Positions 2,225-56,828 of a stretch of 64,000 nt of DNA are shown piece by piece. The notes beneath the pieces are model-generated. The model made no database searches, had not been told where the DNA came from, and saw nothing but the letters and a program-made list of their open reading frames with translations. Position 1 is the stretch's first letter, and each line of letters opens with the position of its first letter. The stretch is from an uncultured Gemmiger sp. (GTDB taxonomy: Bacteria; Bacillota; Clostridia; Oscillospirales; Ruminococcaceae), in contig CALXHS010000027.1 in assembly GCA_944388165.1 (NCBI GenBank), positions 7,957 through 71,956 of the forward strand, read 5' to 3'. A program made the translations under genes and the position numbers.

Positions 2225-2773
2225 ATGGAACTGAAAAATCCGAAGGCGCGGCGGGTAATGGCCGCGGGCTGTGTGTGCGGGCTGCTGGGCAGCCTGGCCC
2301 TGCCCTGGAACCTGGTAAGCTGCGTGCTGTTTGCGCTGTCTTCGGCGGTGCTGGCGGCAGGCTGCCTGATGCTGCGGAGCGTGGGCGCCGGGTATCTGCG
2401 GGCAGCCAAGCCTGCGGTGGCGGGGGCGGTGGCCTTCGCCCTGGGGACCGTTCTGGACGGGGGCAGCCTGTTCCAGATGCTGGTGGTGGCCGGTGCGGCC
2501 CTTTTGTACTTTGTGGTGGCCTACTACGCCGACGCGGTGATGGAAGAGACCGGGACCAAGGTGTCCCGGGGCGGCGCGCCCCGCCCGCCCAAGGCGGCCA
2601 TCCGGTTTGAATATGCCGCCGGTATGTTCGTGCTGGCCCTGCTGGTGGGGGAGATGCTGCCCGCCATCGTGAACTTTGCCAAGGTGGTGGCCATGATCTC
2701 CATGGGCGTGGGCTTTGTGCAGCTGGCACAGTTCATGCTCAGCGGTCCCCGCAAGGAGGACAACGCCGGGTAA
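2225..2773 (+). CDS. Hypothetical integral membrane protein
   Basis: 182-aa ORF with about five hydrophobic helices. TTGCCC-17-TATCAT promoter-like element just upstream. No recognisable family. Confidence 0.5.
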   Translation: MELKNPKARRVMAAGCVCGLLGSLALPWNLVSCVLFALSSAVLAAGCLMLRSVGAGYLRAAKPAVAGAVAFALGTVLDGGSLFQMLVVAGAALLYFVVAYYADAVMEETGTKVSRGGAPRPPKAAIRFEYAAGMFVLALLVGEMLPAIVNFAKVVAMISMGVGFVQLAQFMLSGPRKEDNAG

Positions 2774-2844
2774 GCCGGAAACAGAAAAATCAAAACGGAC
2801 CCCTTCGGAATGCCTGTGCGGCTTCCGAGGGGGTCCGTTGTCGT

Positions 2845-4896
2845 TTATTCGTCCAGGTCAAAGTCCCCGGGCAAAAGCAGGTCCAGGGGCGCGCCGGGGT
2901 CCGCCACCAGGCGGCGGGACTGGTTCAGGATGGCCCGTTCCAACGCGTTGCGGGCCATGCGGCCGTTGCCTGCCTTGGCGGCATCCTCCGCCTGACGGCG
3001 GGCAAACCAGGTCTTGAGGGGCATGGCGCATCCTTCATCCAGGCGGTAGCCCTTGGAGGCGGCCAGGCTGCCCAGAATGGCCCACAGCTCGTCGGCGGTG
3101 TAGTCAGGAAATTCGATCTGGTTGGGGAAGCGGCTGGCCAGGCCGGAGTTGGCGGCCAGGAAGGTCTGCATCTCATGGGTGTAGCCCGCCAGGATCACCA
3201 CCAGGTCGTTGCGGTGGTCCTCGATGCCTTTCACCAGGGTGTCGATGGCTTCCAGGCCGAAGCTGTCCTCACCGCCCCGGTAGAGGCTGTAGGCTTCGTC
3301 GATGAAGAGCACGCCGCCCAAGGCGCTGCTGATGACCTGATTGGTCAGGGGGGCGGTGTGGCCCACATACCGGCCCACCAGGTCGGCCCGGCCCACCTCC
3401 ACCAGCTGGCCGCCCCGCAAAGCGCCGATGGCTTTCAGGTACTTGGCCAGGATGCGGGCGATGGTGGTCTTGCCGGTGCCGGGGTTGCCGGTAAAGATCA
3501 TATGCATGTTGATGTCCGCCACCGGCATGCCCTGGGCCTTGCGCCGCTGCTGGGCCTGCACGTTTTTGGCGATGTCCCGCACAAAAGTCTTGACTTCATC
3601 CAGGCCCACGATGCGGTCCAGTTCCGCCTCTACGGCTTCCACATCCCCGCGGTACTGCTGGGGCAGCAGAGCCAGCAGGTCGAAGGCTTCGCCCCCGTTC
3701 ACCGCGGCAAAGACCCGGCCTTCCCGCACCGTCAGCACGGCAGGGGTGCCCTCAGCGGGGTTGGCGTCGGAAGAAAGGACGTATTCCGCCAGAGCGCGGA
3801 AGAGCAGGTCGGCAAATTCCCGCATGGAGGTCATGCCGCCCCGCTTGCCGTACTGGGCGGCCAGGTAATCCCGCATATCCGCCCCCATGGAGAGGGTCAG
3901 TCCGCACCGGGTCTTGGCCTTCTGGGCCAGGAAATTCAGTTCCCGGGCGGCGATGGCGGCCAGACTTTCGGGGGTGAAGGGGTCGGTGCGGCAGATATCC
4001 CCGGCCAGGGCGTCCACGAACCGGGCGCCGAACCGGTCGGCCAGGGCGGCCTCGTCCTTCTCGGAGAAAAAGACGAAATACTTGCCCCCGGCGTTCAGTT
4101 CACCCACCGCGCCGGGCGCCAGGGCGGTGCCCACATCCACCAGGATGCCCCGCTGCAGCACATACCGGCTGGTCAGGGCCAGGGTTCCGTCCATGGCCAG
4201 GTCGGCCAGCATGTTCAGATAGGAGGAGGCGCAGGCTTCGTAGTGGTCAAAGGCCAGCACCTCGGCAGGGGATTGCAAAGCCGCGTACAGGTCCTGCAGA
4301 AACAGCTTTTCCTGGGCGGGACCGGGGTAGAGGGAAAGGTCCATGGTCTCGATGTCGGGGTTTTTCAAAAGTCCCCGGTCGGCCATTTTCCGCACCACAC
4401 ACCGCAGGGTGTAGTGGCGGCCTGTGCCTTCCGGCCCGCAGAGGAGCATGGGGCCCCGGGCGCGCTGGGCGTCGTCGGTGCCCATGACGAAAGGGCGGCG
4501 GAAGGCCTTGACCACATCCGCCACAAAGGCGTCCTGGCCCAGCACCTCGGTGCGCACCTCGGCGGCCAGACCCTGGAACCCGGCGCCCCGGGTGGGGGCG
4601 GGAGCCGGAGTCGGCTGGGCGTTGTTCTGCAAAAGGCCGTCGCTGCGCAGGTTGCGGGTCAGCTCGCTGCTCATGCGGCGGACGTTCTCGGCGGTGGAAG
4701 CCGCGGCTTTGTCCACCGCGTCCAACGCGTCGGCGGCAGCCCGGCTGCGTTTGTTCCCGGCGGCCAGGGCGTCCAGCTGGGCCTGCATGTCGGCCAGGCT
4801 GGCAGCGGCCGCATCGGCCTGTTCCTTGTCCGGGCGGGAGCGGCCGTTGCCCATCAGACCACGAACCCAGGCGTCGTATCCGTCCTCAATGCTCAT
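2845..4896 (-). CDS. Tandem AAA+ ATPase (SpoVK/CbxX-like); first module degenerate, second intact
   Basis: Intact Walker A FTGNPGTGKTTIARILAKY and Walker B VLFIDEAYSL in the C-terminal half. Upstream module has a degenerate P-loop, LLCGPEGTGRHYT. Start set at MSIEDG (ATG 4896), preceded by GAGGAGG; it overlaps the upstream gene's stop by 11 nt. Confidence 0.8.
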   Translation of the reverse strand: MSIEDGYDAWVRGLMGNGRSRPDKEQADAAAASLADMQAQLDALAAGNKRSRAAADALDAVDKAAASTAENVRRMSSELTRNLRSDGLLQNNAQPTPAPAPTRGAGFQGLAAEVRTEVLGQDAFVADVVKAFRRPFVMGTDDAQRARGPMLLCGPEGTGRHYTLRCVVRKMADRGLLKNPDIETMDLSLYPGPAQEKLFLQDLYAALQSPAEVLAFDHYEACASSYLNMLADLAMDGTLALTSRYVLQRGILVDVGTALAPGAVGELNAGGKYFVFFSEKDEAALADRFGARFVDALAGDICRTDPFTPESLAAIAARELNFLAQKAKTRCGLTLSMGADMRDYLAAQYGKRGGMTSMREFADLLFRALAEYVLSSDANPAEGTPAVLTVREGRVFAAVNGGEAFDLLALLPQQYRGDVEAVEAELDRIVGLDEVKTFVRDIAKNVQAQQRRKAQGMPVADINMHMIFTGNPGTGKTTIARILAKYLKAIGALRGGQLVEVGRADLVGRYVGHTAPLTNQVISSALGGVLFIDEAYSLYRGGEDSFGLEAIDTLVKGIEDHRNDLVVILAGYTHEMQTFLAANSGLASRFPNQIEFPDYTADELWAILGSLAASKGYRLDEGCAMPLKTWFARRQAEDAAKAGNGRMARNALERAILNQSRRLVADPGAPLDLLLPGDFDLDE

Positions 4897-5989
4897 GGGA
4901 TTCCTCCTCACTGCGCGGTGCGCTCTTGACGGTGATGCGGTAGAAATTCTTCACGCTGCAGCCGGCGCGGCCGCCGCCCGCACAGGCGCAGGCACACGCA
5001 CAGCTGGAAACACAGGCGCAGGCACAGCCTCCGCCGCTGCCACGGCCCGCGCCGCCGCCCCGGAAGGACCCGCCCCCCGCGCGGAAAGAAGGCGGGGGCG
5101 TGGTGGGACGGTAGCCCTGGGGCGGCACTGCCCCGGGAGCCAGGTGGATGGTGCGGATGCCGTTGGTGTACCAGCGGCGGTCATTGCGGCCAAAGCCGCC
5201 CCGCCACCGGGGCCGCACGGCGATATCCCAATAGATGGCAAACCCCACAAAGCCGAAGAAGAGCAGCATCATCAGGGCGACAGCCAGGTCGTCGTCGCCG
5301 CTGCCTTCGGAAGGCAGCATCTCGGTGGACGGGTCATACACGGCGGTGACCTCGGCGGGCACCTGCACCCGCACGGTGGCCTTCTCCCCGTGGTCCATGG
5401 GGCCGAAGGTCCAGACATAGTAGCCGTCTTCCAAAGTCTCGGTGTCGGCGGACATGCCTTCAGAGGCCTTCCAGCGGATGGTCAGTTCCTGCACTTCCAG
5501 GTCGTCAAACCAGCCGGGGGTGAACAGATAGGTGGCGGTGCCGTCATCAGACAGAGTGTACAGATGGCTCTGGTGCACCCGGAAAGAGAACTGCACCTGG
5601 CTTTGCTGCCCTGTCTGGGCGGCGTAGTCCGGGGCGTAATAACGCCGCACAAAGGTGATGCGGGCGAAGGTGTTGCCGTCCTCCGTCTGAGAGCGCACAC
5701 CGGAAACGGTGTCCGGGGTCAGGTTCTCGAAGCTGTCCACCTGGTCGTTGGCCAGGCCGATCTTCACCCAGGAAAGGGGTTCGTCGGCGCTGCCGCCGAT
5801 GACCTCCCAGTCGATGTCATAGGTGATGTCGGCGCTGCCATCCTCCCGGGGATCCACGGTGACAACATAGGAATTGATGCGGTCCAGGTCGCCGCTGTCT
5901 GCCAGGGCGGCGGGGGCAGCCAGCAGGGCCAGCAGCGCCACCGCCAGCAGGGCGGTCAGGCGGCGGGCCCGGAAAATCAGATGTTTCAT
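4886..5989 (-). CDS. Single-pass membrane protein: signal peptide, DUF2207-like ectodomain, TM helix, cytoplasmic Gly-rich and Cys-Ala repeat tail
   Basis: The track ORF 4886..6469 is over-extended; start taken at MKHLIFRARRLTALLAVALLALLAAPAALA (ATG 5989). Ectodomain begins INSYVVTVDPREDGSADITYDIDWEV. TM helix is LAVALMMLLFFGFVGFAIYW. Tail is GGGSFRGGGAGRGSGGGCACACVSSCACACACAGGGRAGCS. ATGA overlap with the radical SAM gene stop. Confidence 0.65.
   Translation of the reverse strand: MKHLIFRARRLTALLAVALLALLAAPAALADSGDLDRINSYVVTVDPREDGSADITYDIDWEVIGGSADEPLSWVKIGLANDQVDSFENLTPDTVSGVRSQTEDGNTFARITFVRRYYAPDYAAQTGQQSQVQFSFRVHQSHLYTLSDDGTATYLFTPGWFDDLEVQELTIRWKASEGMSADTETLEDGYYVWTFGPMDHGEKATVRVQVPAEVTAVYDPSTEMLPSEGSGDDDLAVALMMLLFFGFVGFAIYWDIAVRPRWRGGFGRNDRRWYTNGIRTIHLAPGAVPPQGYRPTTPPPSFRAGGGSFRGGGAGRGSGGGCACACVSSCACACACAGGGRAGCSVKNFYRITVKSAPRSEEESHEH
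4958..5026 (-). other. Coding segment for the Cys-Ala repeat (8 Cys in 23 residues) in the cytoplasmic tail
   Basis: Codons for CACACVSSCACACACAGGGRAGC counted back from the stop at 4886. The plus strand reads as gca/aca/ggc repeats. Confidence 0.8.
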
Positions 5990-7374
5990 GGGGTGTCCTC
6001 CTGCAAGGGGGTCTCGCCCAGGGGGCAGGTGTGCAGCATCTTGGCGCTCTGGCGGCGGATGTTGCGGCAGGGGGCGGCGTTCCAGATGCGCCGCCAGGGC
6101 TGGTGCAGGATGTTGCCCAGACCCGGGCCGCACAGCCAGCTCTGGCAGGGCAGCACGGTGCCGTCCGGCGCAATGGCCATGTTGGAGAGGCAGGCCCCGC
6201 AGCTGGGCACCTGGGTGAAGCCCAGTTCCCGCAAAGTCCCGTCCTTCAGCCAGCCGGGGCTGGTAAAGTCCAGTTCCATGCCGTGGGCATCCGCAAAGGC
6301 CCGGGCCTGCCGCAAAGTCTCGGTGAGCTGGGCGGTGGTCAGGCGGGTGCCCCGGCTTTCGGGGGTCTGGGCGCTGCCCGCGGGGATGAGCCCGCTGCAG
6401 GTGGCGTACCGGATGCCCAGTTCGTGGGCCAGGGCCAGGGTGGCGGCATAGTCCTTGTTCAGGCTGCACAGGGGGGTGTTGATGCTCACATTCAGCCCGG
6501 CGGCCAAGGCGTTGCGGATGCCGGCGATGGTGTCGGCGTAGCCGGGGGCTCCCACCAGGGTGTTGTGGATGGATTCTTCCGCCGAATACAGGGTGACCTG
6601 CACGCTGTCCAGGCTGGCTTCGTGAAGATCATGGCACAAAGCGCTGGTGAGCATGCGGCCGTTGGTGTTCAGCCGGGTGACGAACCACTGGGCGGCGTCC
6701 ACCAGCTTCACCAGGTCGTGGCGCAGGGTGGGTTCGCCCCCGGTGAAGGTCAGCTGGGGGATGCCCGCGGTGCGGCATTTCTGGATGACGGCCAGCCACT
6801 GGTCGGTGTCCAGCTCCTCGGTCTCGCCGTAGGGCTGGCGGGCGGCGTAGCAGTGCAGGCATTTCTGGTTGCAGTGCCAGGCGCCGTCCTTGACCATGGC
6901 GCTGATGAGCAGGTCCATGCGGTGGGGGGCCGCCATGTGGCGGGCATAGGCCCCCAGGTCCATGGGCTGGACTTCCGCTTCGGGCGTTTCGCCCCGGGCA
7001 ATGGCAAACAGGGAGTCCAGCATGGATCGCAGGTCGGCGGCGATCTGTTCCGGCGGGGTGCGCTTGTAGACGGCGGCGGTGGCCTTCACCGCGTCGTCGG
7101 CGGCCTGCTGCCATTCCTCCTCCCCAATCTGGCTGCCCTCATAGGGGCGCAGGGCTTCCATGAGGTTTGCAAGAAGAATGGCCCAGGAAACGCTCAGGGG
7201 CAGGATGTCCCGCCCGTTGAGGATGGCCACAAAAGGCACGTCGGTGTGCTGGTGGCGGCTGGGCACCAGATGGATGCGCACCGCACCGGGACCATCGGGG
7301 TCCAGGGTGACGTGGCAGACGCCGTCCAGGTGACGGCGGAGAAACTGGGTCTCGGCCCGGCTCAAAAGCGGCAT
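5986..7374 (-). CDS. Radical SAM enzyme with C-terminal SPASM-type auxiliary cluster domain and about 150-aa N-terminal extension
   Basis: CxxxCxxC motif CNQKCLHCYA. GGEPTL SAM-binding motif (FTGGEPTLRHD). C-terminal Cys cluster CGACLSNMAIAPDGTVLPCQSWLC...CRNIRR...HTCP. RBS AGGAGGG before ATG 7374. Confidence 0.85.
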   Translation of the reverse strand: MPLLSRAETQFLRRHLDGVCHVTLDPDGPGAVRIHLVPSRHQHTDVPFVAILNGRDILPLSVSWAILLANLMEALRPYEGSQIGEEEWQQAADDAVKATAAVYKRTPPEQIAADLRSMLDSLFAIARGETPEAEVQPMDLGAYARHMAAPHRMDLLISAMVKDGAWHCNQKCLHCYAARQPYGETEELDTDQWLAVIQKCRTAGIPQLTFTGGEPTLRHDLVKLVDAAQWFVTRLNTNGRMLTSALCHDLHEASLDSVQVTLYSAEESIHNTLVGAPGYADTIAGIRNALAAGLNVSINTPLCSLNKDYAATLALAHELGIRYATCSGLIPAGSAQTPESRGTRLTTAQLTETLRQARAFADAHGMELDFTSPGWLKDGTLRELGFTQVPSCGACLSNMAIAPDGTVLPCQSWLCGPGLGNILHQPWRRIWNAAPCRNIRRQSAKMLHTCPLGETPLQEDTP

Positions 7375-7495
7375 GAGATACCCTCCTGTATGATATTCAA
7401 AAGGTGGGCGGACCGCGGCGGCACGCCCGGAAAAATCAAGGTTGCAGTATGAGGCTTATTATATCACACAACCGTGGCCAGAACAAGGCAACTGC

Positions 7496-7536
7496 CCAAC
7501 AAACAAAAACACCCGCCCGCGGTGTGCGGACGGGTG
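7496..7536 (-). terminator. Rho-independent terminator downstream of prfC
   Basis: Reverse strand reads CACCCGTCCGC-loop-GCGGGCGGGTG followed by TTTTTGTTTGTT. Confidence 0.7.
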
Positions 7537-7548
7537 CAAAGGCTGTGA

Positions 7549-49678: not shown

Positions 49679-50341
49679 ATGAGATTGCAGAACGGAGAGG
49701 TACTTCTGTGTTGGCCGCTGGCGCTGCATGTGCTTACGGCGGGGTACTTTTACAGCGACGGCAGCCGGCACGAAGCCATCGACCTGCGTACCAACCAGGG
49801 AGGCAGCGTCGTCAAGCCGGTATATGCGGCGGAGGACGGCACCGTGGACTGGACCCAGGAATGGGACGGCCATACCAAGACGGGCATGCAGAGCTACGGC
49901 ACGGCGCTGCTGCTTCGCCACCAGGAATATGGGGGCGTGGCCCTGCAGACCCGCTACGCGCATCTCTCCCGGTTGTGTGTGGCCAAGGGCGATGCCGTGA
50001 AAGAAGGCCAGCTCATTGGTTATACCGGGGAAACAGGGAACGTGTCCGGCGCGCACCTGCATTTTGAGGTGCTGCTGGGCGGTACCCGCCGCAACCCGCT
50101 GGTATGGCTGGATGATGACTTCACCACCGCCAACAGCGGCGTCTATACCTACCAGCCCGGGGAATGCGCTGTGGTGCGCCCGGCGGAAGAACTGCCGGAC
50201 GGAGATGCCCGCCTGCAGACCATTACCATCGGCCCTGTGAGCCAGGGGGACGCTGATGCCATCCTGGCCCTGTGCAAAGAGCGGGAACTGGACAAGCTGG
50301 GGCTGTACCGCTCGGCCTGGGCGGATGAGACTGCGGGGTGA
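49679..50341 (+). CDS. M23-family metallopeptidase (probable endolysin)
   Basis: HxxxD (SRHEAIDL) and HxH (GAHLHFEV) zinc motifs. 220 aa with an extra C-terminal domain. RBS GAGGAGGAA. Confidence 0.8.
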   Translation: MRLQNGEVLLCWPLALHVLTAGYFYSDGSRHEAIDLRTNQGGSVVKPVYAAEDGTVDWTQEWDGHTKTGMQSYGTALLLRHQEYGGVALQTRYAHLSRLCVAKGDAVKEGQLIGYTGETGNVSGAHLHFEVLLGGTRRNPLVWLDDDFTTANSGVYTYQPGECAVVRPAEELPDGDARLQTITIGPVSQGDADAILALCKERELDKLGLYRSAWADETAG

Positions 50342-50658
50342 TGGCGGTGGAAACATGGCCGGAGATCCTGACGGCGGTGCTGCCGCTGCTTACGGCCTTC
50401 TGCGGCTGGGCGGCTGCCCGGCTGACCCGCAGCCGCAAGGAGGAAAAGGCTTTGCGGGACGGGGTCAAAGGGCTGCTGCGGGCCAAGGTCATCGACCTGG
50501 GGCTGCACTACATTGATGAACAGGCGGTGCCGCCCTATGGGGTGGAGACCTTGCGCAGCTGCTACGACCCGTATATGGACCTGGGGGACGGTGATCCTTC
50601 GGTGACCCATATCATGAAAAAATGCGAAAGCCTGCCGGTGCGTTCCGGCAGCGATTGA
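50341..50658 (+). CDS. Membrane-anchored phage protein (N-terminal TM; lysis accessory?)
   Basis: ATG 50341 overlaps the M23 stop (TGATG). N-terminal helix WPEILTAVLPLLTAFCGWAAA. 105 aa. Confidence 0.5.
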   Translation: MAVETWPEILTAVLPLLTAFCGWAAARLTRSRKEEKALRDGVKGLLRAKVIDLGLHYIDEQAVPPYGVETLRSCYDPYMDLGDGDPSVTHIMKKCESLPVRSGSD

Positions 50659-50671
50659 AAGGAAAACGTAC

Positions 50672-50860
50672 ATGGAAGAATTCTGGCAGAATCTGGCGGC
50701 CCTGCTCAAGGTGAAAACCATTGTGACCCTGGTGGTCATCGCGGTGTTTGCGGTGCTGGCCCTTACGGGACAGTTGCAGCCGGATACCGTTATGACCATT
50801 GTCACCATGGTGGTGGCGTTCTATTTTGGTACCCAGAACGGCCGGCAGAGGAAGGTGTGA
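50672..50860 (+). CDS. Holin-like small membrane protein
   Basis: 62 aa with two hydrophobic helices and a charged C-terminus (QNGRQRKV). Last gene before the terminator. Confidence 0.6.
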   Translation: MEEFWQNLAALLKVKTIVTLVVIAVFAVLALTGQLQPDTVMTIVTMVVAFYFGTQNGRQRKV

Positions 50861-50861
50861 G

Positions 50862-50897
50862 AAAAGCGGAGAGCCCGGACGGGCTCTCCGCTTTTGG
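50862..50897 (+). terminator. Rho-independent terminator (right boundary of the phage-like cluster)
   Basis: AAAGCGGAGAGCCC-ggac-GGGCTCTCCGCTTT followed by TGG. Confidence 0.7.
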
Positions 50898-51065
50898 TCG
50901 GCAGTGACATGATTGTGGAAGATGGTAAGGTTGCACAAGAATCCGGGTGGGATTTCTCATAGGGAAAAGAGGAAGCCCTCTTGACGGTACCGGGGCGGAT
51001 TGGGTATCATAAGGCAAGAGGAAACAGGCCGCGCTGCGGCTAAAAGAATGGGGGATTACTGCAAG

Positions 51066-51302
51066 ATGACCAAGCAGGAACTGAAAGAGATCCTGGCGGA
51101 ACAGTTCAGCTGCGATGAAAGCGAACTGACCCCCGCCACCACCTTGGCAGAACTGGGAGCCGACCACGAAGATTTGATCGAACTGGCCTGGCAGCTGGGC
51201 GAAGCCATCGGCACCGAAGTGGATGAGGGCCGCCTGGCAGAGGTGGAGACCCTGGAGGAACTTTGGAAGCTGGCCAGGGAACTGGAAGAAGAAATGGAAT
51301 AA
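51066..51302 (+). CDS. Acyl-carrier-protein-like protein with His in place of the phosphopantetheine Ser
   Basis: MTKQELKEILAEQFSCDESELTPATTLAELGADHEDLIELAWQLGEAIG aligns with the ACP helix-II motif LGxDSLDxVEL, but the Ser codon is CAC (His). Alternative upstream starts at 51000 and 51048. Confidence 0.55.
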   Translation: MTKQELKEILAEQFSCDESELTPATTLAELGADHEDLIELAWQLGEAIGTEVDEGRLAEVETLEELWKLARELEEEME

Positions 51303-51330
51303 AGTTCTGCCGCGCGGGCAAATCAATAGC

Positions 51331-51373
51331 AAAAAAGCCGTTCCCCGATATGGTTGGGGGACGGCTTTTTTTG
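51331..51373. terminator. Bidirectional terminator
   Basis: AAAAAAGCCGTTCCCC-loop-GGGGACGGCTTTTTTT. Confidence 0.8.
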
Positions 51374-51420
51374 GGTAAGGTCATGTCTCAAAGGGAATGC
51401 AGGTAGGAAAAGCTATGTAG

Positions 51421-53115
51421 TTATTTGAGTAGTTTCTTAATCGTTTGCTTTACTTTCCGTTTGAGAGGGTTCGCAGGCAAGACGTTTTCGCCGAGAATCG
51501 CTTGAAAAGCGTCATATTCATTTGCGTCAGATACAAAAATCTCAAAAAGTATAGGCTTGTCAGAGTCAGACAGGAAGGAGTCCATTTGTGCGTTAAATTC
51601 CTCTTTGGTGCGTGCAGAACGGTATTCAAATCCGCATGTGTTTGCCCATCCCTCGGCATTCTTAAAATGTCCGGAAGCACAGATATATCGATCCCGGGAT
51701 TTCCGATCACAAGGACTCAGTTTGAACTCGGTGCCGCCGTTATTGTTTACAAGAAGGATGCGAAGATTATTTTTGATATGCCGAATACCGAGGGAATTCA
51801 TATCATAGTAGAAGGCCAGGTCCCCAACAATCATTAAGGAGAGATGCTCCGATTCCACACTTTGACCTATACAAGCGGAAAGGCCGCCATCAATACCAAA
51901 AGCTGCGACGTTGGAATAGCAGATAATGCTGGAATCTAGGGGGAAAAGACTCCATACGCGCAGGGAATTGAGAATGGAAAAATACATGGTGGAACTTTTC
52001 GGGACAAAGCGGTGCATGGTTTGAGCAACATAAAGGTTGGAAAAAGGCAAATCTACATCGGTCTTTTGTGAGTCGACCAAGGCTTTCCATTTTTCATAGT
52101 AGGAGTGCTCGCAGGAAGCATCGCTGCTGTATGTCTGGAAAAAGGCTGAAATACTGCATTCAAAAATCTTGGTCAGCTTATCATAGGTGTCTACTACGTT
52201 GCCGTCCTCACAGACACGCCAGTGCTCTACGCCGGTCACTTTTGCGGAAGAGAGTTTTCCATAAAACGGATAGTCTCCGGTTTGTCCACCGATGGAAATC
52301 AAGATATCCGGGGCGTAGCCAGAGACAAAGGTATCAATCGCCATGGCAGTCAAGGCAAGATTCCCGGCAACCGTATAACGTCCGTGGTAGTTGGACAGCA
52401 AGTTGACGTAAACCATGGCATTATGGCAGGTACAGAACCGTTCGATAGCTTGTTGATCTTTTGTGCAGAATGGACGGTGCTCACCCACCACAATCATGAT
52501 TTTTTTGCCAGTCAGAGAGACTTCAGGAAGCCCTGTGTCCATACTGTAACGATTTACGGCACGGATGGAGGGTGTAAACTCATCCAGCGTGAAGTCTAGC
52601 CAGGGGATACACAGCTGAACAGGGCCGGTGCCGCGATGTGTCAATTCCAGAATTGCCTCGTTGATCAGCCTCGTGCTGTGGAGATAATCGTTTTCATCCC
52701 GGATAAAGGGAACTTCAATGGTCTTCTTTACACAGTCTTTCGGTAAGGAGCTTTGATGAGGGGCCTGCATGTACTCCTGATATAAAAAGCGAGGATGCTT
52801 TTCCATCGTTACCGCAAGAATCGGCACTTTTTTGTAAAAGGCTTCGGTCAATCCGGGAACATAGTTTCTGGTAGCCTGGGCACTTGTGCAGGAGGTGACA
52901 ATGATTTCGCCGGTTTGCAAGTAAAGCCCAATGGCAAAATACATGGCGCTGCGTTCATCTACTATGGAATAGCAGGTAAAGAAAGGATCATCCTGAACAG
53001 CGTTGATAAAAGGGATATTGGTGGTGCCGGGATTGATTACTATGTGACGTATATTGGCTTTCTTTAACAAGGTTACTAAGATTTTTATATTTTCAAAGTT
53101 CGAAAATAAGGCCAT
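51421..53115 (-). CDS. Thiamine-diphosphate-dependent enzyme, MenD-like N-terminal signature
   Basis: 564 aa. NIRHIVINPGTTNIPF...IVDERSAMYFAIGLYLQTGEIIVTSCTSAQATRNYVPGLTEAFYKKVPILAVT parallels the MenD pattern (PGSRS...DERS...TSGTA.AN..PA..EA...P). C-terminal ThDP-binding GDLAFYYDMNSL...VNNNGG. AT-rich gene. Confidence 0.7.
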   Translation of the reverse strand: MALFSNFENIKILVTLLKKANIRHIVINPGTTNIPFINAVQDDPFFTCYSIVDERSAMYFAIGLYLQTGEIIVTSCTSAQATRNYVPGLTEAFYKKVPILAVTMEKHPRFLYQEYMQAPHQSSLPKDCVKKTIEVPFIRDENDYLHSTRLINEAILELTHRGTGPVQLCIPWLDFTLDEFTPSIRAVNRYSMDTGLPEVSLTGKKIMIVVGEHRPFCTKDQQAIERFCTCHNAMVYVNLLSNYHGRYTVAGNLALTAMAIDTFVSGYAPDILISIGGQTGDYPFYGKLSSAKVTGVEHWRVCEDGNVVDTYDKLTKIFECSISAFFQTYSSDASCEHSYYEKWKALVDSQKTDVDLPFSNLYVAQTMHRFVPKSSTMYFSILNSLRVWSLFPLDSSIICYSNVAAFGIDGGLSACIGQSVESEHLSLMIVGDLAFYYDMNSLGIRHIKNNLRILLVNNNGGTEFKLSPCDRKSRDRYICASGHFKNAEGWANTCGFEYRSARTKEEFNAQMDSFLSDSDKPILFEIFVSDANEYDAFQAILGENVLPANPLKRKVKQTIKKLLK

Positions 53116-53166
53116 GAAAACCTCCTGGTTAAAGTTCGTATGTAACGTGTGTAAAAGGCAGAAAAA

Positions 53167-54693
53167 CTAATGTTTTGCTAAAAGGTTACGCAGACGAGTA
53201 AAAAGATCACGGGCAGCACGTGTCCGACAGGTAAATAGGAAAAAGAAAAGGTTGTACAAGATAGCGAAAAGAAATATACGGATTAGAAAACCTATAAAAC
53301 CAGAAGTTAAAAAAAGGTGAGAACCATGATAGGCTAATAGGGTGGTTATAATAATGATAAAAATATAGCGTAAGTACAATAAAAAATATTCTATAACACT
53401 TGTGTTAAACATGCGCTTATAGATAGAAACAGGATCATAGAGTTCATAGGTCAATGAGCGGGCTATAGTAGAAGCCCAAAGAATACCGGCCAACCCAAAG
53501 CGGAGCCCTAGAACCACATCCAACACTATATTCAAAACAGAAGCAACAATGGGAATATAGGCTCCATAAGTGAACAACCCGGCGGTGTTGCGGAAAGTAA
53601 AGCAGGGATAATGCATGTTGGCCACATAGTAATAAACACAGGCGGCCAGAACAGCGTCGAATCCGATTATGTATTGTTCTCCCAGCCAGATTTTGATCAG
53701 CTCCGACAGAAAGACACATAGACCGGAGGCGGTGAACCCATAAAACCAGGCATTCACAAAGAGCATTTCCCCAAAAACGGCATGCTTTTTTTCCGGAGTG
53801 CTGGCTGCGTTCAGATTGCCTACGCTGGCCACCACCGAGTTCATGATCTGTGCGCCAACAGTTTTGAAAACATTGACCACCATTTTATAGTTGTCGTACA
53901 GACCGACAGTAGCTACATTTATCAAAAGAGAAATAAAAATTGAGTCGGTGCCTTCAACCAGGACACTCCCGACTTTGTATACAACCAGCGCTTTGATATT
54001 GCGTACGATTTCAGAAAGCTCGGCTTTGGGCAGGGGGTCAACATCCTTTTCCGTCAGGAAGGGATACATTTTGTTGGCCTGATGAGACACAAACAGATTG
54101 TTGGCCAGGGTGCCCAGCACCACAATGATCAGATACGGCAGGAACTGATGGGTCCAGAGCAGAAACAGAGATTGTATCAGGACCTGCGCTGCATAAAAAA
54201 TCTGCTGAAAAATTTCGATGAGATAACTTTTTTGGTCCGCAATGATCAGCGATTTTTTATAAGCGTAAAAATATGAAAGAACGCTGTTGAGCAGGTACAA
54301 GCAGTACAGAACGGTGATGTTTTCCCGGACATAATCCACTTCGCCGACGATCATGTGCAGAAAGGGGATCATGCACAGGCCCAGCGCTGCAATGGAAAAG
54401 CCGATAATGCGGTATGACTGCGCATATAAACGCATCAGAGACTTGATCTTGGCAACGTTTTTTTCGGCAAGCGGTTTATAGAGACTGAACACCATCGCAT
54501 TGCCGATGCCCAGCTCCGCAAGGGAGAGGACGGTCAGAATGTCGGTGAAAAGGCCGTTGACGCCCAAATACTCGGCGCCCAGGACTTTGATGAAAACCGT
54601 GCGTCCCACAAATCCAATCAGGTTTTTCAGGATCTGCATGGCCAAGGTCACCGAGGCATTGCGCATTACATATTCACTTCTGGAAGGGGCCAT
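53167..54693 (-). CDS. wzx: Oligosaccharide flippase (Wzx, MOP superfamily)
   Basis: 508 aa, at least 12 TM segments. N-terminus NASVTLAMQILKNLIGFVGRTVFIKVLGAEYLGVNGLFTDIL is typical of Wzx. AT-rich. RBS GAGGTGA. Confidence 0.8.
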   Translation of the reverse strand: MAPSRSEYVMRNASVTLAMQILKNLIGFVGRTVFIKVLGAEYLGVNGLFTDILTVLSLAELGIGNAMVFSLYKPLAEKNVAKIKSLMRLYAQSYRIIGFSIAALGLCMIPFLHMIVGEVDYVRENITVLYCLYLLNSVLSYFYAYKKSLIIADQKSYLIEIFQQIFYAAQVLIQSLFLLWTHQFLPYLIIVVLGTLANNLFVSHQANKMYPFLTEKDVDPLPKAELSEIVRNIKALVVYKVGSVLVEGTDSIFISLLINVATVGLYDNYKMVVNVFKTVGAQIMNSVVASVGNLNAASTPEKKHAVFGEMLFVNAWFYGFTASGLCVFLSELIKIWLGEQYIIGFDAVLAACVYYYVANMHYPCFTFRNTAGLFTYGAYIPIVASVLNIVLDVVLGLRFGLAGILWASTIARSLTYELYDPVSIYKRMFNTSVIEYFLLYLRYIFIIIITTLLAYHGSHLFLTSGFIGFLIRIFLFAILYNLFFFLFTCRTRAARDLFTRLRNLLAKH

Positions 54694-54697
54694 GCAA

Positions 54698-55903
54698 TCA
54701 CCTCGACAGATTCAGGCAGGACAAAATGGTATCGGAAAGAATGGATTCCATGCGGTCATAGCGTTCTTCCACCAACCCCATGGAGGCAGCCGCTTCTTCC
54801 TGCAGGCGGCACCGATTCTGCAGCAACTCCATAGTCTGGGACAAAGCTTCCTGCGTGGACAAGGTGCGCAGGTCCAGAACGTGGTCATATGCCACGGCAT
54901 GAAACACGCCGGCAAATTTCTGGCTGTATGCGGTGGGAATGGTGGCAACACCGGCGGAAAAGGCGGCAATGGTGGCGTGCATCCGCGCGCCGATGAACAC
55001 ATCCATACCGGCAATGCAATTCTTGGCCTGGATGGGGGTTTCGAAGGCATCGTGCACCACCACGCCGGGAATGCTGCGGAAAGAGGCAACGCCGTCCTGG
55101 CCCACATGGGGAATCAGGTGAACTTCATAGCGGGCGTCGGCAGTGAGCGTTTGCAGCAGCGAGAGGATGTATTGGTCATAATCCGTTTTCAGCGGCGTGG
55201 AAAAGGGAGTGCCTTCTGTTTTCTGCCGGACCAGCAGACCGGAAGGGTTGACGCCCACCCGAATGGGTCGAGGGGCACCGGAGGTTTCGGTCCGGGAAAA
55301 AGGCAGGCGGAAAGCCAGGTCGGTTCCGGTATGGATCTCGGCGTGGCAAAATTCCTTCAGGCAGCGGGCGGAATCTTCGTCCCGGGAGATGACAACCGCC
55401 GCCTGCTCTACGATGTGCTGGACCCGCTGCCGGTATTTTGCATCAGAGAAAGGACCGTAGGTCTGAGGCCCCAGCAGCAGAGGAATATGCAGGCGCAGTG
55501 TCCATTCTTTGGCCATGGTCAGCTGTACGAAGCGCTCCCGACCATAAAGATCAGTAAAACTGTCGCCTTGGGTCAGGTCAATGACCAGACGGCAAGAAGA
55601 AAGAAGGCGCAGCATCCGCAGATTCTGCGGCATGGATTTGATGCTGCGCTTGATGTTGGGCCAGTCATAGGGGTCCCAATAACCGATGGGAGCAGGGCAG
55701 ACGCGGGACGGTTCAATGGAGAGCTGTTCACACAAGAGACGGTATTTGGCCGGATCTTGGTGATACTCAAAAATAATATAGCGGAAGGTCTGACCGCTGC
55801 GCTGGGCTATCCGCTCCAGCATGGCAAGCAGAGAATAAGTCAGGGCTACACAACCCATGTTTTCGTTGGAGACAAGGGCTCCCATGATTCCAATTGGTAT
55901 CAC
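54698..55903 (-). CDS. Polysaccharide pyruvyl transferase family protein
   Basis: 401 aa. GTG start after AGGAGG. NMGCVALTYSL...DLTQGDSFTDLYG...ISRDEDSA pattern resembles WcaK/CsaB-type pyruvyl transferases. Confidence 0.7.
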   Translation of the reverse strand: MIPIGIMGALVSNENMGCVALTYSLLAMLERIAQRSGQTFRYIIFEYHQDPAKYRLLCEQLSIEPSRVCPAPIGYWDPYDWPNIKRSIKSMPQNLRMLRLLSSCRLVIDLTQGDSFTDLYGRERFVQLTMAKEWTLRLHIPLLLGPQTYGPFSDAKYRQRVQHIVEQAAVVISRDEDSARCLKEFCHAEIHTGTDLAFRLPFSRTETSGAPRPIRVGVNPSGLLVRQKTEGTPFSTPLKTDYDQYILSLLQTLTADARYEVHLIPHVGQDGVASFRSIPGVVVHDAFETPIQAKNCIAGMDVFIGARMHATIAAFSAGVATIPTAYSQKFAGVFHAVAYDHVLDLRTLSTQEALSQTMELLQNRCRLQEEAAASMGLVEERYDRMESILSDTILSCLNLSR

Positions 55904-55940
55904 TGTTTGACCTCCTGGGATTGCTCAAGGCTGTTTTGCT

Positions 55941-56828
55941 TTAAACCGGCATCCGCCCGGTGCGGCCTTTCAGAAAATCCACCGCGCCCCGCCATTCGCC
56001 GTAGCTGCGCCCTTTGTGGTGGCCTAGTGCCGCCGCCGCCAGGCAGCAGGCGCCGCCCTTGATGGCTGCCAACGTCCCGGCAAAGCGCCGGTAAGCCGCC
56101 GAACGCCCCCGGCAGCGAAGGGCCAGGGTGTTGCGGGTGATGTAATACACCGACAGCATCCCCCCGGCGGTGCCGCCCGCCTTGTGATGCAGCACAGCGC
56201 CAGGCAGATACCACATGGGCACCCCTGCGTCGGTCAGGCGGATGCAGTAGTCCACATCCTCGCAGTACATGAACAGATCCTCGTCCAGATACCCTACCTT
56301 TTCGATCACGGCGCGGGGCAGCATCACACAGCAGAAGGTGATGAACCCTACCTGCTTTTTCTCAGAAAAGGAGGGGCCGTCCTTGGCATGACCGCCCAGG
56401 TGCACCACCTGGCCGGTTTTGCGGTCCAGGGTGCCGCCCGCAAACCAGATCTCATCCGGCGGGTCCATGAACAGCATTTTGGGACAGCTGACCCCATCCG
56501 GCGGTGTCTGCTGCAAAAGGACTTCCAGCATGTCCGGTTCACAGGTTGTATCATTATTCAGCAGCATCACCCAGTCGGCGCCATCTTCCAGCGCCCGGCG
56601 GATGCCCACATTGTTCACCGCCGCAAAGCCCAGATTCTGCTTCTGCGGCAGAAAAACCACATTATCATCCAAAGAACCGCGCAGCCGTTGTACAGAATCG
56701 TCTGTGGAAGCATCGTCCAGCAGGATGACTTCAAAATCCCGGCAGGTCTGGCGGCGCAGGCTTTCCAGGCAGACCAGGGTATCCTGCCAGCCGTTATAAT
56801 TTGAAATGACGATCCCGACTTTCGGCAT
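55941..56828 (-). CDS. Family 2 glycosyltransferase
   Basis: Start trimmed to MPKVGIVISNYNGWQDTLVCLESLRRQTCRDFEVILLDDASTDDS (GT-A DxD context). 295 aa. Confidence 0.85.
   Translation of the reverse strand: MPKVGIVISNYNGWQDTLVCLESLRRQTCRDFEVILLDDASTDDSVQRLRGSLDDNVVFLPQKQNLGFAAVNNVGIRRALEDGADWVMLLNNDTTCEPDMLEVLLQQTPPDGVSCPKMLFMDPPDEIWFAGGTLDRKTGQVVHLGGHAKDGPSFSEKKQVGFITFCCVMLPRAVIEKVGYLDEDLFMYCEDVDYCIRLTDAGVPMWYLPGAVLHHKAGGTAGGMLSVYYITRNTLALRCRGRSAAYRRFAGTLAAIKGGACCLAAAALGHHKGRSYGEWRGAVDFLKGRTGRMPV

Follow-up and report, generated by a model that had tools for sequence, protein, structure and literature searches.

The 64,000-nucleotide stretch of DNA analysed here (hereafter, the window) comes from an uncultured Gemmiger sp. 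(contig CALXHS010000027.1, positions 7,957 to 71,956 of the forward strand) and contains three consecutive genes, all of which lie on the reverse strand, as do the parts of these genes and the upstream boundary described below. The first gene (5986..7374) encodes a radical S-adenosylmethionine (SAM) enzyme of 462 amino acids with a reduced SPASM domain and an N-terminal domain that resembles the recognition element (RRE) of enzymes maturing RiPPs, peptides that are made by the ribosome and altered after translation. The second (4886..5989) encodes a membrane protein of 367 amino acids, comprising a signal peptide, a DUF2207/ribophorin-like β-sandwich ectodomain, a transmembrane helix and a cytoplasmic tail rich in cysteine and alanine. 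The third (2845..4896) encodes a tandem AAA+ protein of 683 amino acids, in which a pseudo-ATPase domain (D1) precedes a CbbX/SpoVK/EccA-type domain (D2). An initial annotation of this DNA had described the three reading frames as overlapping, and both overlaps are present: an ATGA stop/start overlap read between the radical SAM and membrane-protein genes (5986..5989) and an 11-nucleotide overlap, ATGAGCATTGA, read where the stop of the membrane-protein gene meets the start of the AAA+ gene (4886..4896). A GAGGAGG sequence (4903-4909) lies 6 nucleotides 5′ of the ATG at 4896 and AAA+ homologs begin MS(I/L)ED; both observations favour this ATG over the GTG at 4911 as the AAA+ start codon.

The upstream boundary of the operon falls within 7375..7537, a region that contains the prfC terminator (7509-7537), a TGaTATAAT-like element (7458-7466) and an AGGAGG sequence (7382-7387). 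The TGaTATAAT-like element was read by eye; a promoter scan of the region 5′ of the radical SAM gene returned no σ70 site. The initial annotation had also remarked on the lack of a small precursor gene upstream of the radical SAM gene, and this observation held. Between the prfC terminator and the radical SAM start there are only two open reading frames, of 25–26 amino acids with one and two cysteines, neither of which is cysteine-rich, and no small cysteine-rich reading frame upstream is conserved across lineages. Candidate small cysteine-rich reading frames 5′ of the radical SAM gene proved to be out-of-frame artefacts confined to near-identical contigs.

The radical SAM enzyme contains the CxxxCxxC motif for the radical SAM [4Fe–4S] cluster as CNQKCLHC (residues 168-175; 6850..6873), which is invariant in homologs of at least approximately 41% identity, and its GGE motif reads FTGGEPT (residues 210-216). 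Pfam recognizes both the Radical_SAM domain (PF04055; 66.5 bits versus a cut-off of 29.5) and a SPASM domain at residues 392-450 (PF13186; 34.6 bits versus a cut-off of 21.5). The SPASM-like C-terminal region (6019..6201) holds C392, C395, C410, C436 and C450, and the cysteines kept in the family are C392-x2-C395-x14-C410, C436, C450, C303 and C326. The first element of a seven-cysteine SPASM domain is present (C395-x9-G405-x4-C410, with C392 before it), but the canonical CX2CX5CX3C block is absent from the enzyme and from its family; more distant homologs retain that block and keep ECxxCxxxxxCGG-GCP. Judged by this cysteine pattern, the C-terminal domain is a reduced, Twitch-like SPASM domain, which fits the closest relative of the enzyme, SkfB, a Twitch enzyme with a single auxiliary cluster. 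The original description of a radical SAM enzyme with CNQKCLHC, SPASM-like cysteines and an N-terminal extension of roughly 150 residues is therefore retained as regards the motif, the domains and the extension (approximately 160 residues) and amended in one respect, the SPASM domain being reduced rather than canonical.

Assignment to a known family by hidden Markov models, one of the checks proposed with the initial annotation, placed the enzyme in none. Among the 51 NCBIfam families that it matched, no cut-off was reached; the best scores were for NirJ2 (92 bits, cut-off 500) and PqqE (86 bits, cut-off 381), and the maturase models rSAM_skfB, StsB and mycofactocin maturase scored 50 (cut-off 300), 53 (cut-off 625) and 51 bits (cut-off 265), respectively. 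Thus, the enzyme was not found to belong to a family with a known, unrelated substrate, and its nearest solved relatives are peptide maturases. When the family profile was compared with solved structures, SkfB (6efn) ranked first (1e-16), followed by GDGT–MAS, PqqE, BtrN, MoaA, SuiB, CteB and anSME. In the PADLOC defence models, only a generic radical SAM match (pVip, approximately 52 bits, covering the core only) and generic AAA matches were found, with none for the membrane protein; on these matches, a role in anti-phage defence is not supported.

An AlphaFold2 model of the enzyme, built from an alignment of 59 homologs, has a mean predicted local distance difference test score (pLDDT) of 89.6 and a predicted template modelling score of 0.88. 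In this model, an N-terminal unit (residues 20-126) of four β-strands followed by three helices precedes the radical SAM barrel. A Foldseek search with the model again ranked SkfB first (6efn; 4e-14), with SuiB (5v1t; 3e-12) second. The RRE-bearing enzymes SkfB, SuiB, TigE and CteB align over 423–490 columns, in contrast to approximately 300–326 columns for PqqE and anSME. Because the RRE-bearing enzymes align over their full length, the N-terminal extension structurally resembles the peptide-binding domain of RiPP maturases, and the model makes it a probable RRE. This candidate peptide-recognition domain (approximately residues 1-130; 6985..7374) conserves H21, T23, P26, R33, H35, P38, N53, G54, P59 and W64 among homologs that share 47% identity or more with the query.

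The membrane protein begins with a signal-peptide-like N-terminus that ends ALA|DSGD and crosses the membrane once, at residues 235-258 (5216..5287; residues 231-258 are helical in the model). The helix is flanked by DDD on its N-terminal side and by RPRWR..R..RR on its C-terminal side. The juxtamembrane segment that follows, RPRWRGGFGRNDRR (5174..5215), holds a widely shared GGFG/GF motif. With acidic residues preceding the helix and RPRWRGGFGRNDRR following it, the positive-inside rule places the tail in the cytoplasm, a location that, on inference from the sequence, would put it within reach of the radical SAM enzyme. No significant match to the protein was found in Pfam or NCBIfam. DUF2207 (PF09972) scored below threshold (E = 0.01; 16.5 bits versus a cut-off of 24.4) despite spanning positions 1-171 of the 172 in the profile. 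In the AlphaFold2 model (pLDDT 79.8), a well-predicted β-sandwich ectodomain is followed by the transmembrane helix, a short β-hairpin region and a disordered tail, and Foldseek related the ectodomain to ribophorin I/Ost1, the N-domain of M1 aminopeptidases and LppM. Of the architecture initially proposed, the signal peptide and single transmembrane helix are upheld, and the DUF2207-like ectodomain agrees in its β-sandwich fold but rests below threshold as a Pfam match.

The core of the membrane-protein tail, CACACVSSCACACACAGGGRAGCSVKNFY (residues 322-350; 4940..5026), is the proposed substrate of the radical SAM enzyme. As initially counted, it contains eight cysteines within 23 residues (322-344), and it is disordered in the model (pLDDT < 50). 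More than 2364 homologs of the membrane protein were found, and the tail core is invariant across homologs of 45–99% identity and across phyla. In every one of 95 unique tails, the glycine turn is preceded by the eight residues CACACACA, and these are followed, almost without exception, by GGG-R-A-G-C-[ST]-x-K-[DNE]-[FL]-Y. Alanine occupies 470 of the 474 X positions of the CX run, and each tail has a total of 5–10 cysteines. A subgroup of Lachnospiraceae carries a second subtype, CACACACA-SSG-RAGC[ST]VK[DE]FF, with SSCA repeats before it (L033, L063, L066, L068, L070, L072 and L074-L078; FY replaces FF in L072), which gives an overall consensus of CACACACA-(GGG/SSG)-RAGC[ST]xK[DNE][FL][YF]. 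The existence of this subtype indicates that GGG and tyrosine are not strictly required, and the truly invariant elements are therefore (CA)4, one glycine, RAGC, the lysine and two aromatic residues.

For the 15-residue core CACACACAGGGRAGC, 93 distinct coding sequences specify the identical peptide; their third codon positions are only 45% identical, and all six arginine codons are used. These observations indicate that selection acts on the tail peptide and not on a DNA or RNA repeat, and a DNA-repeat artefact was ruled out because the codons vary freely while the peptide stays fixed. The core is more conserved than either the radical SAM enzyme (median identity 50%) or the ectodomain (33%), and some tail-bearing partners are too divergent to be found by tblastn with the query ectodomain. 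An unbiased scan for the tail motif gave no matches in viral contigs. In Lachnospiraceae-type partners, the cytoplasmic linker is longer and has a weak zinc-ribbon match (Zn_ribbon_3, E = 4e-4; L013:10001-11182, residues 270-290), and many tails of this type have a conserved ...SSPNTY(V/I)RV.V..VP... segment ahead of the cysteine run.

To describe the distribution of the pair, one set of loci was selected by the tail and another by the enzyme. A scan for the tail pattern in one genome per GTDB species yielded 79 loci that encode relatives of the membrane protein; among the first 600 pattern matches, at least 482 lacked a confirmed relationship to the query. In 77 of the 78 informative loci, a radical SAM gene is adjacent to that of the membrane protein, the remaining locus of the 79, L037, having been left out because its contig is cut at the gene start. 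A homolog of the enzyme is found immediately upstream on the same strand in 75/79 loci, with alignment gaps of 0–208 nucleotides. The two genes overlap in L071, and in L073 their order is reversed, with the radical SAM gene directly downstream. The tail-selected loci derive from Oscillospiraceae, Lachnospiraceae, Acutalibacteraceae, other Clostridia and Bacilli (Acholeplasmatales, Anaeroplasma). The pair was also seen in bins that carry the labels Eggerthellaceae (Actinomycetota) or Candidatus Saccharibacteria (L030, L031 and L022), reflecting either horizontal transfer or mis-binning. In three Lachnospiraceae loci (L027, L051 and L054), two paralogous tail-bearing genes on opposite strands flank a single radical SAM gene.

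For the converse comparison, 80 metagenome loci were picked by radical SAM motifs (60–73% identical to the query), 56 of which have at least 1.3 kb of downstream sequence. In 52 of these 56 loci, the same strand carries the tail motif approximately 1 kb further downstream. The four exceptions comprise two broken or chimeric genes (L108 and L123) and two loci in which a glycine-rich tail ends before any cysteine (L144 and L153). Hence, the gene-neighbourhood check proposed with the initial annotation showed wide co-occurrence of the radical SAM and cysteine-tail genes, whichever of the two was used for selection. Clustering of neighbouring reading frames of at least 90 amino acids across the 79 loci revealed no third conserved gene around the pair, and no protease or transporter/exporter gene is conserved with it in these loci. 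Two apparent third-gene clusters were antisense artefacts of high-GC DNA. With the AAA+ gene confined to one lineage and no further gene shared among the loci, what is conserved is a module of two genes rather than the three-gene cassette initially described.

The most informative comparison, of the state of the cluster-binding motif with that of the tail, came from more distant homologs. A search of 1.84 billion cluster representatives returned approximately 138 radical SAM representatives at E ≤ 1e-30, and the genomic context of twelve was inspected; L163, P0394 and L165 were uninformative, lying at a contig end or lacking a DNA record. Two homologs of 41–43% identity (P0384/L168 and P0371/L169) have an intact CxxxCxxC motif and are encoded immediately upstream of further members of the membrane-protein family, whose tails read ...SSCACACACAGGGRVGCGKRGF... 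and ...CACVSSCACACAGGGRAGCNAKGF..., respectively. Five homologs of 29–35% identity have a degenerate motif, and none is accompanied by the tail. In P0387 (CxxxCxxY), the partner is an ectodomain-plus-transmembrane protein with a short, cysteine-free tail; P0396 (NxxxCxxC) and P0417 (no motif) adjoin proteins of the same layout, with a signal peptide, an ectodomain, a transmembrane segment and a short, cysteine-free tail; P0392, in which the first cysteine of CxxxCxxC is lost, adjoins an unrelated small transmembrane/coiled-coil protein; and P0388 (CxxxQxxC) has no partner. The P0387 partner aligns with the membrane-protein family in hhalign with a probability of 95.9% (E = 6e-9), and these pseudo-enzymes retain the auxiliary-cluster cysteines.

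Over all informative loci, an intact motif coincides with the tail in approximately 131 (119 by regular expression, 10 of the SSG subtype and the two homologs of 41–43% identity) and occurs without it in five (the broken L108 and L123, the cysteine-free L144 and L153, and L167, which has no partner), and a degenerate motif occurs with the tail in none and without it in five, counts that are indicative only, given that the cases are not phylogenetically independent and that the divergent lineages behind the correlation are few and possibly related. An earlier reading of ten Lachnospiraceae loci as tail-less reflected a limit of the regular expression; they carry the SSG variant. The radical motif is kept where the tail exists and decays where it is absent, as would be expected if the tail is the substrate or, at the least, if catalysis and tail are functionally coupled. 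Moreover, since pseudo-enzymes adjoin homologous partners that have no tail, the pairing is older than the tail and survives without catalysis.

The AAA+ gene was found at 10 of the 79 tail-selected genome loci, exclusively in Gemmiger, Subdoligranulum, Faecalibacterium and Allofournierella. Both P-loops given in the initial annotation can be read in the sequence: a degenerate one in D1 (GPEGTGRH, residues 154-161; 4414-4437) and an intact one in D2 (GNPGTGKT, residues 470-477; 3466-3489). The degenerate P-loop is itself conserved as GxxGxGRH(Y/F) in AAA+ homologs (L003-L007, L011, L039, L100 and L105), suggesting that D1 is a maintained pseudo-ATPase and not a product of decay. The C-terminal module is related to CbbX (3zuh; 2e-60) and EccA1 (6e-48), and the N-terminal half is weakly ClpB-like. 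All three NCBIfam equivalog scores fall below their cut-offs (spore_V_K, 298.6 versus 423; EccA, 245 versus 467; CbbX, 242 versus 459). In the AAA+-bearing clade, most tails end in acidic ...E(E/D)xHE(H/S) (4889-4909 in the window), in contrast to Lachnospiraceae tails, which end in basic, K/R-rich sequence; the AAA+ protein might use this acidic terminus as a recognition tag. Elsewhere in the window, positions 50001-56000 have a GC content of 0.44–0.55, compared with approximately 0.60–0.68 over most of the window, and may be a horizontally acquired island.

Our favoured interpretation, to which we attach moderate confidence, is that the radical SAM enzyme takes the cytoplasmic tail of its partner as substrate, most plausibly forming cysteine thioether cross-links in it. 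The disordered tail would fill the role that a small precursor peptide has in RiPP systems. The enzyme would dock on the membrane protein's cytoplasmic portion and then use a 5′-deoxyadenosyl radical on the core, (CA)4-(GGG/SSG)-RAGC[ST]xK[DNE][FL][YF]. Sactipeptide- or ranthipeptide-type thioethers would make the (CA)4 strand double back over the glycine turn onto the RAGC[ST]xK strand. Sactipeptides have a hairpin topology, and thioether chemistry is favoured because the closest relative of the enzyme by two measures is a sactisynthase, the proposed substrate is dominated by cysteine and its layout resembles a sactipeptide hairpin. Even so, if the tail is taken to be the substrate, we regard Cys-to-carbon thioether cross-linking as the likeliest chemistry but as somewhat less probable than not. 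Since no protease or exporter is conserved and the core is invariant, the product would be expected to stay on the protein, tethered to the membrane, and to serve as a housekeeping structural, redox or metal-binding element and not as a variable antibiotic. Where a CbbX/SpoVK-type AAA+ protein is translationally coupled downstream, as in the Gemmiger/Faecalibacterium lineage, it may act on the same tail; such engagement, by analogy with that of CbbX with the C-terminus of RbcL, is speculation. A wider formulation, in which the enzyme installs cross-links or a redox or metal cofactor on the tail of a full-length receptor-like membrane protein and one lineage adds a dedicated CbbX-type remodeller, strikes us as possible though somewhat short of probable.

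The proposal that the tail is the substrate, already made in the initial annotation, is strengthened by the co-occurrence of the two genes, the lack of a precursor, the maturase-like fold of the enzyme, the cytoplasmic placement and disorder of the tail, the strong selection on its peptide and the joint loss of motif and tail. Several observations weigh against it. L029 (9997-10813) bears the tail and has no radical SAM gene within 10 kb on either side. (A close relative of this locus, L010, carries a normal pair.) In the Faecalibacterium-like alleles L144 (approximately 5400-6351) and L153 (approximately 2330-3306), an intact radical SAM gene lies beside a glycine-rich tail that is free of cysteine. 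At L160 (3991-6111), L161 (1031-3130) and L162 (2456-4659), of low, low and moderate GC content, respectively, pseudo-radical SAM genes are found immediately upstream of those for homologous ectodomain-plus-transmembrane partners that lack the cysteine tail. These tail-less pairs, together with L144 and L153, imply that the link between the radical SAM enzyme and the membrane protein is not solely that of enzyme and substrate, and pairing without catalysis points to a physical interaction of the two proteins. The juxtamembrane D/N-x-Y...GF(G) motif shared by tail-bearing and tail-less partners, in which GGFG/GF directly follows the transmembrane helix, is a candidate docking site. The initially suggested RRE-like character of the N-terminal extension holds for its layout of strands plus three helices and for its alignment with SkfB and SuiB, but not at the level of sequence: neither comparison of the N-domain profile with the Protein Data Bank, in which it matched no RRE, nor Pfam searches of 20 N-domains gave a significant RRE match, the only trace being PqqD in 1/20 (E = 0.07). 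The dependence among the loci behind the motif-versus-tail counts also belongs here. Finally, an invariant core is atypical of RiPP products and suits a metal- or cluster-binding site equally well.

This last point leads to the main alternative, which we judge unlikely, namely that the tail is an unmodified, metallothionein-like metal or Fe–S site, that the membrane protein is mainly an anchor, partner or regulator, and that the enzyme acts on another substrate, which could be a different stretch of this protein or a peptide or molecule that is unlinked. Persistence of the pairing with tail-less partners and with pseudo-enzymes that keep their auxiliary-cluster cysteines is in keeping with this explanation, as are the intact enzymes of L144 and L153 beside tails without the cysteine motif; core invariance would be expected of a binding site, and the GGFG/GF motif common to both kinds of partner could be the docking site. 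However, fixation of alanine at 470/474 positions and invariance of RAGC[ST]xK are stricter than is usual for CxC metal sites, the CxxxCxxC motif disappears in just those cases in which the tail does, which is unexpected if catalysis is aimed elsewhere, and no other candidate substrate gene is conserved nearby. The cytoplasmic region also resembles the recognition–linker–core–follower layout of a RiPP precursor and the enzyme has the architecture of a RiPP maturase, so the membrane protein might be a giant precursor whose modified tail is cut away to give a small bioactive peptide for release or export. We consider this very improbable, because no protease or transporter gene is conserved in the 79 loci, the core is invariant across families and phyla, unlike those of secreted RiPPs, and a conserved folded ectodomain would be pointless as a leader; the viral contigs without a match are accompanied by the lack of any mobility signal.

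The tail might instead be a substrate for chemistry other than thioether formation, such as a C–C or C–O cross-link (Lys or Arg to an aromatic residue), formylglycine formation, epimerization or the generation of a protein-derived cofactor. Precedents include the streptide-type cross-links of SuiB and StrB, the formylglycine of anSME and the cofactors derived from PqqA or MftA. SuiB, which forms a Lys–Trp cross-link, ranks second by structure, anSME and PqqE also appear among the matches, lysine, arginine and aromatic residues are conserved beside the cysteine run, and cofactor precursors such as PqqA and MftA typically have invariant cores. We nevertheless regard such chemistry as rather improbable: sequence and fold comparisons alike put the sactisynthase SkfB first, the tail contains no sulfatase motif (C/S-x-P/A-x-R), the replacement of tyrosine by phenylalanine in the SSG subtype means that a tyrosine hydroxyl is not required, and eight conserved cysteines are hard to account for without a role for sulfur. 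Thioether modification of the tail thus continues to be the interpretation that we favour.

Our literature searches found no description of the tail motif, of DUF2207 with a radical SAM enzyme or of the pair, the motif strings matching only DNA primers, and no model in the 2025–2026 releases of Pfam and NCBIfam covers the tail or the pair. RefSeq names are generic, ‘radical SAM protein’ for the enzyme and ‘hypothetical protein’ for WP_204650527.1 of Gemmiger formicilis. Nonetheless abundant, the homologs form at least thousands of clusters at 90% identity, a single Gemmiger cluster having 3610 member sequences. We rate the enzyme class and the maturation of cysteine-rich sequences by radical SAM enzymes as already known, and the proposed protein-tail substrate, its permanent membrane tethering, the reduced SPASM domain and the pseudo-enzyme branch as new. 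In nearly all accounts, the substrates of RiPP-type radical SAM maturases are small peptides that are released. If the favoured interpretation is correct, RiPP-maturase chemistry would extend to the maturation of membrane proteins, and the module would represent an undescribed class of post-translational modification and of protein architecture with a housekeeping role in abundant gut Firmicutes (Faecalibacterium, Gemmiger and Lachnospiraceae), as well as a first functional handle on DUF2207-like proteins. Genome mining for short reading frames beside radical SAM genes would overlook substrates of this kind. The module is very common in dominant human-gut commensals, and its presence in the named species Gemmiger formicilis makes it directly testable. 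The tail-less alleles L144 and L153 are natural variants that could serve as controls.

Among characterized systems, the sporulation killing factor sactisynthase SkfB of Bacillus subtilis, with its substrate SkfA, is the closest to the enzyme by sequence (6efn, 1e-16) and by fold (4e-14 over 423 columns). SkfB, whose peptide-binding domain has a probable counterpart at the N-terminus of the present enzyme, shares with it the radical SAM barrel and a C-terminal domain of the Twitch type, with a single cluster instead of a full SPASM domain, and it acts on a cysteine thiol. However, identity is only approximately 20% and the skfB model of NCBIfam scores 50 bits against a cut-off of 300; moreover, SkfA is a small secreted peptide from an operon with protease and exporter genes, whereas the candidate substrate here is the tail of a 367-residue membrane protein, with no export genes conserved. 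CteB (the SCIFF maturase), AlbA, PapB and RumMC are RRE-bearing radical SAM/SPASM enzymes encoded beside cysteine-rich substrates in Clostridia, in which they form thioethers, and CteB (5wgg) was matched by our searches. SCIFF differs in being a peptide of approximately 45 residues with a maturase that has a full seven-cysteine SPASM domain, in contrast to the present family, which is without CX2CX5CX3C and falls below every cut-off. As for sactipeptide and ranthipeptide maturases, a cysteine-rich sequence is encoded beside the enzyme, but it is a protein tail and not a small peptide, and unlike a RiPP biosynthetic cluster the module has no small precursor reading frame and no conserved protease or exporter.

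A radical SAM/SPASM enzyme that modifies cysteine within a full-size protein is exemplified by anSME, which was matched by both sequence and fold (4k36-4k39). This match spans approximately 320 columns, the core alone, the present enzyme having an extra N-terminal domain; anSME has no RRE, and its substrate motif, C/S-x-P/A-x-R in sulfatases, is absent from the tail, which also has no sulfatase neighbour. To our knowledge, canonical DUF2207 proteins neither pair with a radical SAM enzyme nor carry the (CA)4 motif. Such proteins, for example SMU.243 of Streptococcus mutans, share with the membrane protein a β-sandwich ectodomain, a transmembrane segment and a glycine-rich cytoplasmic C-terminus, although the match of the membrane protein is below threshold (16.5 versus 24.4 bits). 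DUF2207 is a domain of unknown function, and one study links deletion of SMU.243 to effects on stress tolerance and biofilm formation (PMC10457818). For the AAA+ protein, the C-terminal module is homologous at the domain level to CbbX, SpoVK and EccA, from which the protein differs in falling below all three cut-offs, in having an extra ClpB-like pseudo-ATPase domain and in being restricted to a single bacterial lineage. CbbX remodels Rubisco by engaging its C-terminal tail, which suggests that the AAA+ protein could act comparably on the tail of the membrane protein.

Parallels can also be drawn with QhpD/QhpC, PqqE/PqqA and MftC/MftA, in which an invariant core is modified for housekeeping and not for antibiosis. 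PqqE (6c8v) was among the structural matches, although the enzyme scores far below the NCBIfam cut-offs for both PqqE and the mycofactocin maturase. QhpD makes cysteine thioethers within a protein subunit, and we know of no substrate of the QhpD, PqqE or MftC type that is tethered to a membrane protein. By these analogies, the module described here would seem closer in spirit to QhpC, PqqA and MftA than to the bacteriocins.

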